The notes: generated by a model from the sequence alone, not told the origin. Shown: positions 2,963 through 10,547, numbered from the stretch's first letter. The stretch is 12,696 nucleotides of DNA from a virus (IMGVR_UViG_2639763115_000001:1-12696); one strand, 5' to 3'. Numbers and translations are program-made.

Positions 2963-3183
2963 TATCGGTTAACCAGTTCCTTGTTGGTGGAGTCCAGGGT
3001 GTCAAACAGGGATGCAAATTCAGCATCCAGCGCCGCTTTTTTGTAGGCTTCGAAAGTAGCCTTGCTGACAATTACTGCTGGCTCACGGCCTCTGCGGGTG
3101 ATTTCAACCTCTTCCCCGGCTTCAACATTGTTGAGCACTTCAGAAAGGTTGCCGCGCGCGGTACGGAAGTTAATGGATTGCAT
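2962..3183 (-). CDS. phd: Phd antitoxin (prevent host death), 73 aa
   Basis: Translation from the internal ATG ([19 protein letters not shown]…) matches P1 Phd in sequence and length. GAGGTG SD 5 nt upstream. The track ORF begins 2 codons earlier on GTG. Confidence 0.93.
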
Positions 3184-3189
3184 AAACAC

Positions 3190-3221
3190 CTCGTGTACTC
3201 GTTATGTGTACACAATTATAA
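3190..3221 (-). promoter_or_regulatory. Putative phd-doc promoter/operator: perfect palindrome TGTGTACACA (3205-3214), adjacent GTGTAC half-site (3193-3198), minus-strand -10 TATAAT (3215-3220)
   Basis: Palindrome and hexamer read directly. Phd/Doc are known to autoregulate through palindromic operator sites at their promoter. -35 is poor. Confidence 0.5.
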
Positions 3222-4653: not shown

Positions 4654-5121
4654 ATTAAATCCCATCCAGAATAATTGAATAACGGCTATTATTTAGTCGC
4701 CGCAATATCTTCAAAGTTTTTTTCTCACCCCATTGCTTTTTGCGCACAGCTTATCTGGCTTGCGGTGCGCCGAAATGTAAATTCGCCTTCAGAGTTATCC
4801 ACAAAGTTATGCACTTGCAACGAGGCCATTTTCCTCATACTGTGTTTGCACACACAGGAAATGGATATTTTATTAATTGAATTTTATTAAATAATAATGA
4901 TAAGGAGAAAATTTGAGATGTAATCATGACATTAATAGATAGGGCCTGCATTACAGGCCCCAACTACATCAAGGAATTCACAGTTCCCTGATTTTTATAC
5001 CGAAAACATGTGCCGTAAGTTCACGTTAACGACTTTCTTTCACCGAATCCAACTATATAGAGGTTGGGTTTCTACGTCAACGTGAGAGCACACAGCTTTA
5101 CATTTGACGAGGATTACCCTG

Positions 5122-5259
5122 ATGATTGTAATTTTTCAGTTTCTAAGTGCATTTTTAAATGCGCCTGTTCTTAGCCAAGTGCTGGCGATTGTCTTCATCG
5201 TGGTTCTGATATGGTTTTTCAAGTCAGTGATAAACAGAGGCGTGCGCTGGCTTATTTAA
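5122..5259 (+). CDS. Small hydrophobic protein (45 aa, MIVIFQFLSAFLNAPVLSQVLAIVFIVVLIWFFKSVINRGVRWLI); one predicted transmembrane helix, basic C-terminus
   Basis: Not in the ORF track. ATG at 5122 with GAGGA SD 8 nt upstream. Only plus-strand gene in an AT-rich intergenic island. Confidence 0.3.
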   Translation: MIVIFQFLSAFLNAPVLSQVLAIVFIVVLIWFFKSVINRGVRWLI

Positions 5260-5442
5260 TGTCGCGCTGAGATATTAATTCCCTTGCTGTTTAACCATTT
5301 TTTGTGTGTGCTGGTGAGCGTGTGAAGGCTCAATTTGTTGCCCACCAGTATTTACTATTTCTAAGCTCCACAGTGTCACTTCCGCACAAACAACTTAGCG
5401 CGGAATCAGTATTCGGCCCAAGATGTAAAAAGCCAACCTGCG

Positions 5443-5709
5443 TTATGGTTCGCATTTCCAAATAGTGTTCTGAACGCCCGTGCCGGGCGCGAGATGTGGA
5501 TTAGCGTTCGCGCTATGCTGATATACGGCTTTAGACTTTCCATATTGCTGACAGGCTTTATCTGCGGTTTTTTGCAGGCTATCCAGCCCATACCAGCCAT
5601 CAGACTGGATGCTTACCTTTTCACCGTCATTGTATTGCACCATTGCACACCCGGACATAGCCAGCATCGCACCGACAATAACGCTTTTCCATAAAACTCT
5701 ATGCAACAT
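5443..5709 (-). CDS. Putative small lipoprotein (88 aa from ATG; signal peptide with lipobox-like AMSGC)
   Basis: N-terminus MLHRVLWKSVIVGAMLAMSGC has a basic n-region, hydrophobic core and Cys. Track ORF starts on TTG two codons upstream. SD-like GAGGGGA lies inside the upstream terminator stem. Confidence 0.45.
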   Translation of the reverse strand: MLHRVLWKSVIVGAMLAMSGCAMVQYNDGEKVSIQSDGWYGLDSLQKTADKACQQYGKSKAVYQHSANANPHLAPGTGVQNTIWKCEP

Positions 5710-5713
5710 ATAC

Positions 5714-5745
5714 AAAAATCCCCTCTGTGAATTGAGGGGATTTTA
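5714..5745. terminator. Rho-independent terminator hairpin (TCCCCTC / GAGGGGA, 8-nt loop) with A-tract and T-tract flanks
   Basis: Read directly. Lies 34 nt downstream of the stop of the 249-aa minus-strand gene; the T-run follows the stem on the minus strand. Confidence 0.6.
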
Positions 5746-5778
5746 GCATGGTGATCAGATATCAGCTTTATCAGGAAT

Positions 5779-6528
5779 TTAATCAGCCTCCAGTGGCAAT
5801 AACGCCTTAGCCATTTCATGAACCAACATGGCATCAATGACGCCTAGCGTATGGCCCGGCTTAATCTTTAATGCGGCCTCAAGATAGCCTCTTTCCAGAG
5901 TGGTTTTTACGCTTTTCCTGGGCGCCTGTTGGGAACTATCCGGAAGATCCGGATGGTTCCCAGCCTCATAAGCTATCCGCAACCAGTGCATGAATGTTTC
6001 CGCAGACACACAACCGCAGTCCACATCGATTTTCCCGCGTTGCTGTTCCAGCCATTGCCCAAAATCCAACCTGTAAGCCTTACTTTCAAGTTCATCGCCA
6101 TTGAACTCGACTTTCTGCGACGCTATGAGAGCTGATTCGTATTGTTCGCGAGTGACAACTGACTGGTATTCATCGCTATCAAGATCACCAATTGGAAGCT
6201 CAATCTCACAACAAAAATTGCGCCCAAAGAACGTGTCTTTTTTGTGGTCTGAGCCAAAAGCAAAAGTCGCGCATGGCGCCATTAAATTGGCACTGAGCAG
6301 GCGACAATCGATCATACCATCAGGCCACCCGCCGCACTTAGGCAGCTCCTTCACTAACAAGTCGATAAGCTTCATTTTTTTATCATCTTTGCTAGTTGCT
6401 AACGCCATTTTTGCAAGTCCAAATACTTCATCTGCCGTATATCCAGCACCGTGACCATACATTTCGATACGGGAAATAATCTCTGATATACGCTCTTTAG
6501 TGATTCTGGTCATTTCTTTTTGCGCCAT
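5779..6528 (-). CDS. Hypothetical protein (249 aa)
   Basis: Long ORF. The ATG at 6528 has an AAGGA SD about 12 nt upstream; an alternative ATG at 6513 forms an ATGA start/stop overlap with the upstream gene. Confidence 0.7.
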   Translation of the reverse strand: MAQKEMTRITKERISEIISRIEMYGHGAGYTADEVFGLAKMALATSKDDKKMKLIDLLVKELPKCGGWPDGMIDCRLLSANLMAPCATFAFGSDHKKDTFFGRNFCCEIELPIGDLDSDEYQSVVTREQYESALIASQKVEFNGDELESKAYRLDFGQWLEQQRGKIDVDCGCVSAETFMHWLRIAYEAGNHPDLPDSSQQAPRKSVKTTLERGYLEAALKIKPGHTLGVIDAMLVHEMAKALLPLEAD

Positions 6529-6884
6529 TTCTTTTCACATTCCTTAGTCCATTTTTCAATGTTCATTTTGGCAATATCAGTCATTCCATCGCCTAAGAAA
6601 TACCTTTCCCGGTATGTCTTGCACTTAAACCACACTACAATAGCCACCAGCCAGAAAATAAAAGGCCAGACAGCAATACCAACTACAGCCACGATAAAGT
6701 CCAATAGACACAAATGAAGCTCCCCTACTTCTGTTTCAGGCAATATCTTTAAAGAGTTAAACAGCAGACTGAACGAATGGTCGTATGCAGTAGCGCTATA
6801 AGACATACAATCCATATAATTAAAATCATAGCCTGCGGCTGCCGCCCATAATGGGCAGTCAAGAAAATGTTTGAATGTCATCAT
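6510..6884 (-). CDS. Hypothetical membrane protein (124 aa), one long hydrophobic segment and a Lys-rich C-terminus
   Basis: ATG-ATG start at 6884 with no clear SD. Hydrophobic stretch FIVAVVGIAVWPFIFWLVAIVVWF. Confidence 0.5.
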   Translation of the reverse strand: MMTFKHFLDCPLWAAAAGYDFNYMDCMSYSATAYDHSFSLLFNSLKILPETEVGELHLCLLDFIVAVVGIAVWPFIFWLVAIVVWFKCKTYRERYFLGDGMTDIAKMNIEKWTKECEKKWRKKK

Positions 6885-6950
6885 ATAAATTTAATCAGTT
6901 ACACAGTGTGGCTGCTTCCCTGCCGTAACAGCAGGGTAATAAAGTTATAA

Positions 6951-7115
6951 TCAGTCTCCAGATAGAGATATAGCTAACGCACCAACGAGGAATAAGGTGC
7001 TACCAGCCAATGCACCGCAGCTCTCCGTTCCCCATTCAACGCCACCAGCCAAAGCCACAAAAAAACCACAAACACAGACAAATATAAACGTCGCCCAAAA
7101 CTGTTTCTTTTTCAT
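6951..7115 (-). CDS. Small membrane protein (54 aa, MKKKQFWATFIFVCVCGFFVALAGGVEWGTESCGALAGSTLFLVGALAISLSGD)
   Basis: Not in the ORF track. ATG at 7115 shares a base with the stop of the upstream gene (TAATG). GGAG 9 nt upstream. Two hydrophobic segments. Confidence 0.35.
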   Translation of the reverse strand: MKKKQFWATFIFVCVCGFFVALAGGVEWGTESCGALAGSTLFLVGALAISLSGD

Positions 7116-7408
7116 TATGGGGTGCTCCAGTTATCTTCAATTACAATGCTCAACCTTTGTAGCCATTCTGCTAATTTCAGCATTGCTTCTCTTTCGCTTA
7201 AACCACGCGGGAAATCATCAAGCGATATTGTTGGCTTGAAGTTCCCGAAATTATCCATTTCAACTGTCAGATTTTGCTCTAACACGGTATTCCTGACACG
7301 GCTATTGTGCCGAAGCAAATATACTGATCGTGATTCATTAGTTTTGTGGTCGAATTGATATTCGGTAAGTATCATCTGGCTTTTGCCATGACTATTACCT
7401 CTCCACAT
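7115..7408 (-). CDS. Hypothetical protein (97 aa from the internal ATG)
   Basis: ATG at 7408 with GAGG SD 7 nt upstream. The track ORF (7115-7495) extends further upstream across a small overlapping ORF, so the longer start is less likely. Confidence 0.5.
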   Translation of the reverse strand: MWRGNSHGKSQMILTEYQFDHKTNESRSVYLLRHNSRVRNTVLEQNLTVEMDNFGNFKPTISLDDFPRGLSEREAMLKLAEWLQRLSIVIEDNWSTP

Positions 7409-7415
7409 ACTTACC

Positions 7416-7538
7416 TCACTTAATAAAACAACTCCATGCGTAGTTGATGATTTTTTCCCACGCAATATAAATCTGCACTCCAGCAGTAAAACCAAAGCCT
7501 ACAATTGCTGAAAAAATCAAAACATTTACTTTTGACAT
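7416..7538 (-). CDS. Small hydrophobic peptide (40 aa, MSKVNVLIFSAIVGFGFTAGVQIYIAWEKIINYAWSCFIK)
   Basis: Not in the ORF track. Weak SD. Stop lies 8 nt before the ATG of the downstream 97-aa gene. Confidence 0.25.
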   Translation of the reverse strand: MSKVNVLIFSAIVGFGFTAGVQIYIAWEKIINYAWSCFIK

Positions 7539-7586
7539 TATAAAATTTCTCTCGGTGTCGTAGGTGATAGCACCATAATTGATAAT

Positions 7587-7919
7587 TTAGTGAGTTAGCA
7601 GCTTCATTTTTTTGATGATTTCCGCATGAGCATCATCGTTATCAACACTTAGCTCGTTTAATGCTTCTCGCACTACATCAACTTCTTCAGGCTGAAAGAA
7701 GTCGTCGCGGTAATCACCAAATAGAACCGAAACCAGCCTGGCACCAGCAACATCAAGATTAGCGCTAACAGGTGGCTCGATATCTCGCCCACAATTCCAG
7801 GCTTTTTGGGCTTCTTCCAGCGTGTAAACATGAGCGCGATCGATATCAGAGCTGTAACCATTGCCGTTATGGCAATGGAATGAAGCGTTATTACCCACAG
7901 TTTCACGCGAGCACATCAT
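7587..7919 (-). CDS. Hypothetical Cys/His-containing protein (110 aa from ATG)
   Basis: Track ORF starts on TTG at 7961 and would overlap the upstream gene by 32 nt. First ATG (MMCSRE…) lies 10 nt after the upstream stop. Cys3, His15, Cys16, His17, Cys43 near the N-terminus. Confidence 0.5.
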   Translation of the reverse strand: MMCSRETVGNNASFHCHNGNGYSSDIDRAHVYTLEEAQKAWNCGRDIEPPVSANLDVAGARLVSVLFGDYRDDFFQPEEVDVVREALNELSVDNDDAHAEIIKKMKLLTH

Positions 7920-7929
7920 GTAAAAACGG

Positions 7930-8511
7930 TTACTCACTGGTTGCCCCCTGAATACGCTCAAACTCGATTACCCAAACCCAGGGATTAGCGTTCCAACTTT
8001 CTTCGCCATAAATTGATTCCCATAGGCTACGGAAACCTGGGTAATGCTTATCGCCAATGAGGGTAAATTCTGTTGGTGCGCCCTCAGCCCTTGCATCGCA
8101 TTCGCTGATATCGTTCAACCGCTCAACGCGCACGTTGGTAATTTCCAGCAAAATGCGCGATGCCCAGCGCGGCATGTGAATTGATGGCGTCCACTTTTCT
8201 GATACTGGCTTATTACAAACCTCAACCGGAACCCGGTGCGTTTGTTCTGTCCAGGAGTTACGCACGCTTGCGCGATAAACCAGCGTTGCGACGTCCGTCG
8301 CTTTGCCATGTACCCGGTAGGTTTCACGAACCCAAATACGATCTCCCGGTTGACCATATGGACAATGTTTAGCAAGCAACTCTGCGGCCACTGCCCGTCC
8401 ATAGAATTTTTCTTCAACAATCCTGCGAGTCTGTGTTTTATTCCCGCCAAGAATTGCCCGGACCATCTCATCGTTGAAAATCATGCCGCGCTCTTTCACT
8501 TCGCCTTTCAT
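7930..8511 (-). CDS. Phage protein, tentatively ASCH-like domain (193 aa)
   Basis: ATG at 8511 with AAGGGGGA SD. The MIFNDEMVRAILGGNKTQTRR … PGDRIWVRETY pattern recalls ASCH-type phage proteins; assignment from memory. Confidence 0.65.
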   Translation of the reverse strand: MKGEVKERGMIFNDEMVRAILGGNKTQTRRIVEEKFYGRAVAAELLAKHCPYGQPGDRIWVRETYRVHGKATDVATLVYRASVRNSWTEQTHRVPVEVCNKPVSEKWTPSIHMPRWASRILLEITNVRVERLNDISECDARAEGAPTEFTLIGDKHYPGFRSLWESIYGEESWNANPWVWVIEFERIQGATSE

Positions 8512-8520
8512 GCATCCCCC

Positions 8521-8607
8521 TTACCCATGCGCGACAATGCCGCCAAAAGTGATAGAGAACAGCCAGAAATAGATCGCGGCCATAATGATTTTGAATGCCG
8601 TGTTCAT
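8521..8607 (-). CDS. Small hydrophobic peptide (28 aa, MNTAFKIIMAAIYFWLFSITFGGIVAHG), first ORF of the operon
   Basis: Not in the ORF track. Consensus AGGAG SD exactly 8 nt upstream of the ATG. Ends 10 nt before the next gene. Confidence 0.3.
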   Translation of the reverse strand: MNTAFKIIMAAIYFWLFSITFGGIVAHG

Positions 8608-8634
8608 ATTTTCAGCTCCTGTGATTGATTGGAT

Positions 8635-8666
8635 ACATGCCGCGCCTTGCGGCATGTTTTTATTTT
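8635..8666 (+). terminator. Strong hairpin (9-bp stem ACATGCCGC/GCGGCATGT, 5-nt loop) followed by TTTTTATTTT on the plus strand; terminator-like in plus orientation, or a 5' UTR stem-loop of the minus-strand operon
   Basis: Read directly. On the minus strand the stem is preceded by an A-tract and has no U-tract, so it would not terminate minus-strand transcription. Confidence 0.45.
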
Positions 8667-8676
8667 CACTTTCTCT

Positions 8677-8706
8677 GTTTTAAAAATCAATATTTATTAG
8701 AGCAAT
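8677..8706 (-). promoter_or_regulatory. C1-repressor-operator-like site ATTGCTCTAATAAATAT (8690-8706) overlapping a putative promoter (-35 TTGCTC, 17-nt spacer, -10 TAAAAC at 8677-8682)
   Basis: 16/17 match to the P1 C1 operator consensus ATTGCTCTAATAAATTT as I recall it. Overlaps the HAD gene stop codon by 1 nt; lies upstream of the 28-aa ORF and ASCH-like gene. Confidence 0.55.
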
Positions 8707-9212
8707 TATTGTTGATGGAGAAGCGCGTTTTCATACTCCCTGACCATTAACGTAAGCACGCCGTGCCTCCTGAAAACACGCGCCACTTCAATCTTATCTT
8801 CCAGCGCGAACGCGATTTTACTTAGACCAATTTTCTTAAGGAGATCAATCTTTGCTGGGCCGTCATTTCTGTCATCGGTGGCAGGACGCATAGATAGCAA
8901 AGGCTCAGCCCCGTTTGTTACGTACTTCCGCAGCCAGGCTCGTGTTTTATCCCTTGCGATCTCACAGCGCCCGGTTACAAACCAGACCGTGTAAACGTTA
9001 AATAACTGGCGCACAATATCAATAACTGGAGTTATGGGAGTATCAGTGTCACAGGCGAGATTAAACTCGTTCCAGTCCTTTGTTAATGCACCTTTACCTG
9101 GTGGCGGAAGCAAATGCAGTCTGTCTTCAGTTGCCTCTGATATTGTTCCATCAATATCAACTATGACGATATACGGACGTTCCTGGTGTGCGTGTTTATT
9201 GAAAATACTCAA
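8706..9212 (-). CDS. HAD-superfamily phosphatase/nucleotidase-like protein (168 aa)
   Basis: Motif I VIVDIDGT near the N-terminus, later T (WFVTGR) and K/DD-like positions. Only in-frame start is TTG at 9212, preceded by strong GAGGAGGG SD. Confidence 0.65.
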   Translation of the reverse strand: MSIFNKHAHQERPYIVIVDIDGTISEATEDRLHLLPPPGKGALTKDWNEFNLACDTDTPITPVIDIVRQLFNVYTVWFVTGRCEIARDKTRAWLRKYVTNGAEPLLSMRPATDDRNDGPAKIDLLKKIGLSKIAFALEDKIEVARVFRRHGVLTLMVREYENALLHQQ

Positions 9213-9230
9213 ATGCCCTCCTCATTGGAC

Positions 9231-9264
9231 GAAAAAAATGCTGGTGGGCGCACTCCACCAGCAT
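9231..9264 (-). terminator. Rho-independent terminator (10-bp stem ATGCTGGTGG/CCACCAGCAT, 7-nt loop, then T7 on the minus strand)
   Basis: Read directly. Lies between the 420-aa gene stop (9285) and the HAD gene start (9212), so it may act as an attenuator. Confidence 0.65.
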
Positions 9265-9284
9265 TAAAAGTGACACTGTAACTG

Positions 9285-10547
9285 TCAGCGAACGTAAATA
9301 GTGCCGCCGTTCTCTTTTTCCCATGCATCGCTACGTGCATAGCAAACATCGAGAAGTCTTCTTGCCGCTGTTTCCTCTAAACCCAATTCGACAACCAACT
9401 GCTCATGACGGCGGGTAACCACATCAAACAGGGTATGCAGCCCTTTAGCTGCCAGATCATCAATAAATTCCGGTTCGAACGGCAGCTCTGCATCTGCCAA
9501 CATAACCTCTTGCGCCCACTCGACACGGCGGACCAGTTCCGGGCGGCGGCTTTCCATCTCTTTACAGATCAATTCATGGAAGAACTCTACCCAACCTTCC
9601 GGCTGGAACTCGCGGAAAATGGCCAGCGGCTGGAAGTTTGGCATCAACCATTCGTTGATTCGGATATCAATGGCATAGCCCATGTCGCAGCAGAACTGAT
9701 AAGCAAAGTCCAGCTTAGAAACGATATAAGGACGCTCGTTATTGAACTCTTTAGGCGATGAGATCCCATAAGCCAGGAGGCGCGGGAAGAAGGAGATTTG
9801 CCCTAACGTCGGATGAAGTTTGCTTGCAGGGAAACGGCGCTCAGTAATGCCATACATTTCCTTCTTGAGCGTCGCAAATTTGGCATTCTCATTAACCAGC
9901 GCGGTAACCTCTGCTTTTTTATTAGCAAATGCCACGCGCGCTTCGCTTGCATCTTTAATAGTTTTTTTGAGCTGTTGGTTAAGATCGGCGACCTGCTTAC
10001 GCAGTTCCTGTCGCTCGCTTTTAGCTTTGTTATAGCGTTTCTCAAGGTTAAAAGGATCAAGTTTCATGATCTCTTTATATTGAGATTTTAGCGTTGAAAT
10101 CTGTGAGTTCCGCAGTTCAACCATCGCGGTCATTTCATTGAGTTTTGTTTCCAGCTCAATGCTTATACGTTCGGCATTATCAGCACGCTGGTTGGCGTCA
10201 TGCGTCGCATCGTCGATCGCGTCCTGTTGCTGGCGTTTCAAATGTTCAATTTGTAGCTGAAGCTCTTCAATTTCTTTACCCTTCAGACCGAGATCCAACT
10301 GCATATTTTCAGCTGCATCTACCAGGGAGTTATGGCTATCAGCTTCTGCGTTATAAACATCAATAAGCTGTGCGTGAAGCATCTCCGCTGACTGAACCGC
10401 ATTATCAAAAAAACGCGCTGTGAGGTCATCACAACTAACGCGGCGTTGCGCGGCCCGGATGTTCTGGATAATGGCTGGGATACCGGCATTCAGGACGTCA
10501 GGGATAGATACATTTTCGATTGATTGGTTTTGTGCTGAAGTGCTCAT
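9285..10547 (-). CDS. Hypothetical protein (420 aa): N-terminal ~230-aa coiled-coil, uncharacterised C-terminal domain
   Basis: Long ORF with ATG start. Heptad-like, charge-rich sequence (…EELQLQIEHLKRQQQDAIDDA…) from the translation. Confidence 0.7.
   Translation of the reverse strand: MSTSAQNQSIENVSIPDVLNAGIPAIIQNIRAAQRRVSCDDLTARFFDNAVQSAEMLHAQLIDVYNAEADSHNSLVDAAENMQLDLGLKGKEIEELQLQIEHLKRQQQDAIDDATHDANQRADNAERISIELETKLNEMTAMVELRNSQISTLKSQYKEIMKLDPFNLEKRYNKAKSERQELRKQVADLNQQLKKTIKDASEARVAFANKKAEVTALVNENAKFATLKKEMYGITERRFPASKLHPTLGQISFFPRLLAYGISSPKEFNNERPYIVSKLDFAYQFCCDMGYAIDIRINEWLMPNFQPLAIFREFQPEGWVEFFHELICKEMESRRPELVRRVEWAQEVMLADAELPFEPEFIDDLAAKGLHTLFDVVTRRHEQLVVELGLEETAARRLLDVCYARSDAWEKENGGTIYVR

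Follow-up and report, generated by a model that had tools for sequence, protein, structure and literature searches.

P1-like phage-plasmids are common in Enterobacteriaceae, and the slot between their pap and hot/lxr genes, which is among the few recombination hotspots, has been published as 'variable region 8' (PMC9603915) and as 'RD-5' (PMC6906374). The P1 slot genes pmgT, pmgU, pmgV, upfN and upfO were non-essential in a CRISPR interference assay from which upfM was left out (PMC10695390). A C1 repressor operator is annotated at the counterpart position in P1 (OpmgT, formerly Op88) and in P7 (Op(hea)), and the P7 record gives the latter as 'predicted to regulate expression of hea operon'. 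Here we analyze the occupant of this slot in a stretch of viral DNA of 12,696 nucleotides (nt), IMGVR_UViG_2639763115_000001:1-12696, called the window below, which sequence comparison identifies as a P1-like phage-plasmid. An earlier note, made from the sequence of this DNA alone, suggested functions not yet described for this region; the region itself is covered by the publications cited above, and its open reading frames (ORFs) are deposited as hypothetical proteins.

By our reading, the minus strand from 8706 to 5715 is a single transcription unit of eight predicted cistrons, ORFs A to H, with products of 28, 193, 116, 40, 97, 54, 124 and 244 or 249 amino acids (aa). It is a new combination of known, uncharacterized cassettes within a known hotspot, put together from independent cassettes that also occur in the early regions of lambdoid and Uetakevirus phages. 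The small hydrophobic ORFs in it look like real, independently mobile genes, not annotation noise. Two points are modestly new, namely the 28-aa reading of ORF A with the constraint on it, and the definition of a family around ORF F.

Organization and predicted control of the operon

The features of the unit, in the order of transcription, are as follows.

8690..8706, minus strand: C1 repressor operator, ATTGCTCTAATAAATAT, overlapping the pap stop codon, with 1 mismatch to the 17-bp consensus
8662..8690, minus strand: predicted sigma-70 promoter (counterpart of P1pmgT), with -35 TTGATT at 8690-8685, a 17-nt spacer and -10 GAAAAT at 8667-8662
8635..8657, minus strand: GC-rich 5' hairpin of 9 bp at the predicted 5' end of the mRNA (-20 kcal/mol, z=-3.5)
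8521-8607, minus strand: ORF A, 28 aa, AGGAG 8 nt before its ATG, one predicted membrane helix
7930-8511, minus strand: ORF B, 193 aa, soluble
7587-7937 or 7587-7919, minus strand: ORF C, 116 aa (GTG start) or 110 aa (ATG start), in-frame chimera
7416-7538, minus strand: ORF D, 40 aa, one predicted membrane helix
7115-7408, minus strand: ORF E, 97 aa, soluble
6951-7115, minus strand: ORF F, 54 aa, two predicted membrane helices, its start overlapping the stop of E (TAATG)
6510-6884, minus strand: ORF G, 124 aa, one predicted membrane helix
5779-6528 or 5779-6513, minus strand: ORF H, 249 aa (start at 6528, RefSeq) or 244 aa (start at 6513, ATGA overlap), mosaic
5715..5744, minus strand: intrinsic terminator closing the operon, 11-bp stem followed by UUUUUGU (-21 kcal/mol, z=-3.2)

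The eight packed ORFs and the AGGAG before the 28-aa ORF that the earlier note had listed are present, and the TAATG (E/F) and ATGA (G/H) junctions are real. Its description of the spacing, as overlaps or gaps of 8-10 nt, holds for the overlaps but not as a uniform rule: A and B are separated by 9 nt, B and C by 10 nt (or they overlap by 8 nt), C and D by 48 nt, D and E by 7 nt and F and G by 66 nt, while E and F, and G and H, overlap. The terminator that it had placed after the last ORF was found at 5744-5715, and none of 200 shuffled sequences was as stable.

In annotated relatives the gene order is c1 ... doc-phd-humD ... hot ... [8706-5715 operon] ... pap-pmgS/shtB. The order pmgS/shtB, pap, operon, hot, humD, phd/doc, with the operon on the pap strand, was found both in an identical plasmid and in the annotation of P1, P7 and SJ46. 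Ten Enterobacteriaceae plasmids match region 5500-8900 at 99.9-100% identity and parts of it occur in 1059 plasmid records; of the phages in GenBank, SJ46, P7 and P1 match best, each in blocks only.

The 17-bp C1 operator (ATTGCTCTAATAAATTT-like) stands right after pap and overlaps the downstream promoter, and the window holds 4 C1-operator-like sites against 0.10 expected. We positioned the promoter by a relaxed promoter scan and by transferring the P1 annotation through an alignment of 98% identity, which puts the predicted transcript start near 8655, at the foot of the hairpin at 8657-8635. A scan of the sequence from 8600 to 5780 gave no further minus-strand promoter-like site and no strong terminator. 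The hairpin between F and G (approximately 6918-6936) is not significant (z=-1.1), and an Rfam scan of 5300-9300 returned only a chance-level match to GcvB (E=0.2, 20 bits where the gathering score is 42). Because the C1 operator overlaps the promoter, the operon would be expected to be on at induction, in line with the expression on induction that the earlier note had supposed; we infer both C1 repression and expression after induction solely from this overlap.

Across about 104 related loci the stem of the 5' hairpin varies only at C72 in the closing pair, a C-to-U change that keeps a G-U wobble, the remaining changes being in the loop. Read on the plus strand (8635-8667), the conserved hairpin has the shape of an intrinsic terminator and is followed by TTTTATTTTC; no plus-strand gene precedes it here.

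The small hydrophobic ORFs A, D and F

Membrane helices were predicted by Kyte-Doolittle hydropathy in windows of 19 residues, with peaks of 2.10 for A, 1.83 for D, 2.36 and 1.93 for F, and 2.63 for G. Together with the comparative results below, these values make a membrane location plausible for the products of all four ORFs. Hydrophobic composition alone is weak evidence for small genes, and small hydrophobic ORFs are mildly enriched in the whole window (6, against 3.0 +/- 1.6 in shuffles). A, D and F exceed chance because they are conserved and not because of their composition. No other ORF of this kind starts with ATG, and the three occupy the intergenic gaps of the operon on its coding strand. 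Public protein collections already hold all three as 'hypothetical' or 'membrane' proteins, with the 54-aa F on 333 contigs, the 40-aa D on 843 and a 44-aa reading of A on at least 1000.

The peptide of ORF A is MNTAFKIIMAAIYFWLFSITFGGIVAHG, with one predicted membrane helix. The 44-aa reading carried in databases starts at 8655, inside the hairpin at the predicted transcript start; the 28-aa reading with its AGGAG is the better one because the longer start would fall in a hairpin right at the predicted 5' end of the transcript. P1, P7 and SJ46 encode exactly this peptide, and the 28-aa ORF is not annotated in the P1 or P7 record. A degenerate DNA pattern for the first 11 codons of A located it in 103 IMG/VR loci, 87 of which have the same peptide. 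In the part that the search did not use, codons 12-28, we counted 9 synonymous and 6 non-synonymous distinct variants, against a 24% share of synonymous sites (binomial P=0.0027); in the remaining five frames of the region the test is not significant, or marginal at P=0.05.

This excess bears directly on the possibility that A is a regulatory leader whose translation matters, for example because it opens the mRNA or brings ribosomes to B 9 nt further on, while the 28-aa peptide itself is functionless. The layout would suit a leader: A opens the series of cistrons behind the 5' hairpin, its TAA stop codon (8523-8521) comes just before the GGGGGA site and ATG of B, and A is kept in every P1-like element found. 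Moreover, it is only in loci with an hsd cassette in place of B/pmgT that non-synonymous variants of A become at all common, the figures being 12 of 23 there and 2 of 72 in the other loci. The synonymous excess in the A frame, by contrast, points to a constraint on the amino acids, and when the variants are counted as mutational events the non-synonymous to synonymous ratios in the two contexts (4:8 and 2:4) are the same. Relaxed selection on A in hsd-type loci is therefore suggestive and not established, and a leader with a functionless peptide seems to us unlikely.

In the hsd-type plasmids, which are P1-like, a convergent type I restriction-modification (hsd) cassette replaces the whole operon and is joined 4 nt past the stop codon of A, and the plus-strand terminator at 8635-8667 would there end hsdR transcription. 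In IncF plasmids an 84-bp piece of ORF A survives next to hsdR, cut short by IS1, and such arrangements suggest that hsd has been passed between conjugative plasmids and P1-like elements. The stretches compared here are 8517-8600 of the window, 3001-3206 of locus L009 and 3001-3084 of locus L008.

The plus-strand terminator-like hairpin with its T-run also raises the question of whether A could be the toxin of a type I toxin-antitoxin-like module, with a plus-strand antisense RNA that ends at 8635-8657 and would cover the ribosome-binding site of A. A is small and hydrophobic, as are D and F (28-54 aa, 19-residue hydropathy peaks of 1.8-2.4). Yet no credible plus-strand promoter was found within 200 nt (the best candidate agrees at 8 of 12 positions), there was no Rfam or Pfam match to a toxin or antitoxin, A heads an eight-gene repressor-controlled operon, and the plus-strand terminator is explained by the related plasmids in which a convergent hsdR reads into it. 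We regard a toxin role for A as highly improbable.

ORF D has a full-length match to phrog_5525 (E=1e-24) and is annotated in SJ46 (J46_0090). Uetakevirus phages phiv142-3 and EC.W1-9 carry a 40-aa homologue of about 50% identity after their Eaa/Ea22 genes, with an AGGAGG site, and P1-like elements hold 12 protein variants of D. At 57% nucleotide identity to the Uetakevirus homologue, the differences number 19, 12 and 22 by codon position, fewest at position 2. As judged from these alignments, D has been retained as a 40-aa ORF across unrelated phage groups, and constraint on it within P1-like elements appears weak.

An alternative is that at least one of the small ORFs, D most plausibly and A possibly, is an untranslated chance ORF in a spacer kept for RNA or DNA reasons. 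D lacks a synonymous excess within P1-like elements and its ribosome-binding sequence is weak here, the region around A also holds the conserved hairpin and promoter, and the enrichment of small hydrophobic ORFs in the window is only mild. What speaks against such a view is that D keeps exactly 40 codons at the Uetakevirus distance, with a strong AGGAGG and the fewest changes at position 2, that the family of F is deep and has invariant residues, that the constraint on A is specific to its frame, and that homology junctions respect the ORF borders. We consider it quite improbable that any of these ORFs is untranslated. The earlier note had proposed a synonymous/non-synonymous analysis of each small ORF as a check: A shows a synonymous excess, and none was detected in D within P1-like elements.

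ORF F is a predicted two-helix membrane hairpin with the loop AGGVEWGTxxCG and a ratio of non-synonymous to synonymous substitution rates (dN/dS) of 0.35-0.44. The same overlapping junction after E also holds 52-aa variants at 71-77% identity and 58-aa variants at 49%. An exhaustive HMMER profile search of 1.84 billion representatives gave a family of 35 clusters with lengths of 46-84 aa, and in a 28-member alignment F10, G25, W28 and G29 are invariant, with the loop AGGxxWGTxx[C/A]G between the hydrophobic helices. The family is absent from Pfam, phrog_22580 is matched by only 5 of the 28 members, and tblastn with a distant member against GenBank phages found nothing. The 54-aa gene defines a wider, uncurated family of predicted two-helix proteins.

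Distant members of the F family sit in nin/early regions near NinB, NinG, replication O-like or helicase genes, where they overlap whichever gene precedes them, and that gene is not a homologue of E. We considered E as an obligate partner of F, since F always follows E in P1-like elements, and rejected this because the genes upstream of the distant members are unrelated.

ORF G and the soluble ORFs

ORF G has one predicted membrane helix (approximately residues 58-86) between an acidic N-terminal domain and a basic C-terminal tail. It matches phrog_2638 (E=1e-60), and its dN/dS of 0.17 and 34 synonymous to 30 non-synonymous variants (P=6e-9) point to clear purifying selection. Other temperate phages have homologues at 50-59% identity, placed among RdgC, exonuclease/RNase T, Dam and DinI genes; conservation is highest in the acidic N-terminal domain (WAAAAGY.F.YMDC) and in the ECEKK at the C terminus. 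AlphaFold2 models G as an all-helical rod (predicted local distance difference test, pLDDT, 77), and a Foldseek search of BFVD with this model found only an unnamed protein of 28% identity (E=7e-3). In their patterns of variation A, F and G all carry signatures of constraint at the protein level.

ORF B is the counterpart of P7 Upf86.8 and of the N-terminal part of P1 PmgT, with 98% identity to its P7 and SJ46 versions and 48% to PmgT; it matches phrog_874 (E=1.5e-86) and has a dN/dS of 0.12. The Prokaryotic Genome Annotation Pipeline (PGAP) names it (WP_039022010.1) 'ASCH domain-containing', a name left unconfirmed by a Pfam scan of B that found nothing at E<=0.1. A single-sequence AlphaFold2 model of B was unusable (pLDDT 37). 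ORF E matches phrog_1258 (E=1e-48), has GAGGT before its ATG, a dN/dS of 0.10 and a variant test of P=4e-9.

ORFs C and H are composite. Residues 1-60 of C match phrog_2457 and residues 53-116 match phrog_3876, the two SJ46-like blocks overlap at a 21-nt repeat at 7758-7778, and PGAP marks the 5' part of C as an incomplete pseudogene. C is a chimera, probably produced by a deletion of approximately 2.4 kb between 21-nt repeats in an SJ46-like ancestor. Pieces of H match 8 PHROGs, making it a mosaic of several phage protein families.

Cassette structure of the operon

We mapped homology breakpoints from local alignments against nine relatives. They fall at ORF borders: at 8517, next to the stop codon of A (8521); at 7932-7948, the B/C border; at 7414, between the stop of D (7416) and the start of E (7408); at 7127 and 6894, bounding a 232-nt cassette that holds F; at 6513, the ATGA start of H; and at 5443, the stop of a lipoprotein-like gene. 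A further junction, at 7758-7778, lies within the chimeric C. Homology to plasmids that have no G stops exactly at 6513, where their H gene starts, and the ATGA start of H is supported because the mosaic junction ends exactly there. Short repeats of 21 nt (7758-7778) and 17 nt (7932-7948) mark block boundaries at which separate SJ46 and P7 segments overlap. Recombination between such microhomologies at gene borders could account for the pattern, one event having deleted the 2.4 kb and made the chimeric C.

Gene content varies among related elements: F is missing from the SJ46-type plasmids (D-E-G-H), D from others (E-F-G-H) and G from still others (E-F-H), and elsewhere E stands alone. In related loci the same slot has Ead/Ea22-like, DUF551, DUF1382 and 'eaa' neighbours, all from the pool of accessory early genes of lambdoid phages. 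Homologues of the cassettes are found in unrelated backbones, with junctions at 8517, 7414, 7127/6894 and 6513, as would be expected of mosaic cassettes. Because D, F and G occur independently of one another, they would form no complex and, with A, no set of four.

From the expression of several small membrane proteins together on induction, the earlier note had suggested superinfection exclusion, holin-like or membrane-stress functions. Four predicted inner-membrane products within one inducible operon do lend themselves to such a reading, G has a basic C-terminal tail, and early-expressed exclusion proteins occur in other phages, T4 Imm being an example. The exclusion genes of temperate phages, however, act in the lysogen, where C1 would repress this operon. 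Exclusion in the lysogen is unlikely because the predicted C1 operator overlaps the promoter, and exclusion during lytic growth may occur. PADLOC and Pfam gave no match to an exclusion or defence family, and no Sie match was found.

A holin role, too, fits poorly. The operon has no lysis cassette, adjacent endolysin or late promoter, the nearest late promoter annotated in P1 (LPhot) lying further downstream. Pfam, NCBIfam and the lysis category of PHROG gave no holin match. The charged C-terminal tail typical of holins is missing from A, D and F, which end in AHG, CFIK and SGD, only G being basic. With the independent assortment of the cassettes added, a joint role in exclusion, lysis control or membrane stress strikes us as improbable.

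Proposed function

The explanation that we favour is that the region is a C1-repressed early accessory operon, placed after pap in P1-family phage-plasmids (OpmgT/Op88, P7 'hea'), whose membrane mini-proteins are independent and dispensable early factors; we think this probable, with some reserve. C1 would keep the operon silent in the lysogen. Once the phage is induced or infects a cell, the sigma-70 promoter would fire and give one polycistronic mRNA, translated by coupling, and A, D, F and G would insert into the inner membrane. Each would act alone, as a dispensable accessory factor on a membrane target of the host or of a competitor during early lytic growth, for example by modulating a host membrane protein or defence effector or by blocking the entry of a secondary phage. 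The four would be neither a lysis device nor a four-part complex.

Several results weigh against this explanation. Searches of Pfam, NCBIfam and PADLOC with the eight proteins and their neighbours gave no significant match for A to H, the only weak family matches, to KleE and DUF805, being driven by helices; searches of the PDB with the sequences of B, E and H found nothing. With no functional hint from family or structure, the step to a modulator of a membrane target is made by analogy. Promoter, transcript start and translational coupling are predictions from the DNA and from P1 annotation. The test on A depends on just 15 distinct variants from related sequences. Within P1-like elements D shows 6 synonymous to 16 non-synonymous variants, and among its copies there one has a CTG start and one is disrupted.

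A bolder version holds that two of the mini-proteins stand for functional families so far overlooked: A would be a true small protein heading the C1 operon and working with the ASCH-like/PmgT-type gene that usually comes after it, and the F family, spread over the early regions of many temperate phages, would be a conserved membrane effector directed at one target in the host; we offer it as a tentative idea that is doubtful as it stands. Since the slot is one of few recombination hotspots, its cargo likely matters in conflict between phage and host or between phages. Our results offer candidates that small-protein studies could test, and they leave the picture of P1 biology unchanged.

Neighbouring features

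Several features outside the operon were noted. Between pmgS/shtB and pap, at 9237-9265 (minus strand), a strong terminator-like hairpin (11-bp stem, T run) suggests that pap is transcriptionally separate from the upstream sheath genes. At the other end, 5443-5709 (minus strand) is an 88-aa lipoprotein-like gene with a signal peptide and AMSGC lipobox (phrog_7757), which starts 6 nt past the stem of the operon terminator and has its GAGGGG ribosome-binding site inside the 3' arm of that stem. With a dN/dS of 0.03 it is the most constrained gene nearby, and in other plasmids it abuts hot directly.

Over 4666-5316 the identity to the P1 upfM-upfN-upfO region is 77%, a much greater divergence than in the backbone on either side. 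In the otherwise unannotated stretch between the lipoprotein-like gene and hot, the opposite strand holds an ORF of 45 aa (5122-5259, plus strand) that is very hydrophobic. P1, P7 and SJ46 keep it at equal length with 61% amino-acid identity, and it is annotated only in SJ46 (J46_0085). In P1 it is antisense to upfM; its pairwise dN/dS is approximately 0.45, but its frame is not singled out by the variant test. In the related P1-like contig L010, a Tad2-like gene (PF11195) at 7883-8159 lies just past doc and is possibly an anti-defence gene in a neighbouring variable slot.

Comparison with known systems

The closest relatives are the P1 OpmgT (Op88) operon pmgT-pmgU-pmgV and the P7 'hea' operon, which likewise stand directly after pap with a C1 operator at the pap stop codon, and which share with the present operon the promoter region, the hairpin and the 28-aa ORF with its identical peptide. 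They differ in that pmgU, pmgV and most of the P7 upf genes are missing here, C to H being SJ46-type and other cassettes. The Salmonella phage SJ46, a P1-like Punavirus (genes J46_0087 to J46_0098), matches A, B, D, E, G and most of H in blocks of 93-98% identity, and its annotation includes D and, as a 'membrane protein' (J46_0098), the 44-aa reading of A. SJ46 is without F, has the additional 2.4 kb or so between B and D that is deleted here, and has a longer counterpart of H (310 aa).

The early regions of lambdoid phages and Uetakevirus (exo-xis 'ea' and nin) likewise consist of short overlapping genes swapped as cassettes. Here the cassettes sit in a P1 backbone under the predicted control of the C1 repressor instead of lambda-type PL/PR control. 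Holins, T4 Imm, the type I toxins Hok and TisB and regulators such as MgrB resemble the small ORFs in size (28-54 aa) and in having one or two predicted helices; none of them matches as a sequence family, and the setting and regulation of the operon are unlike those of holins and type I toxins.

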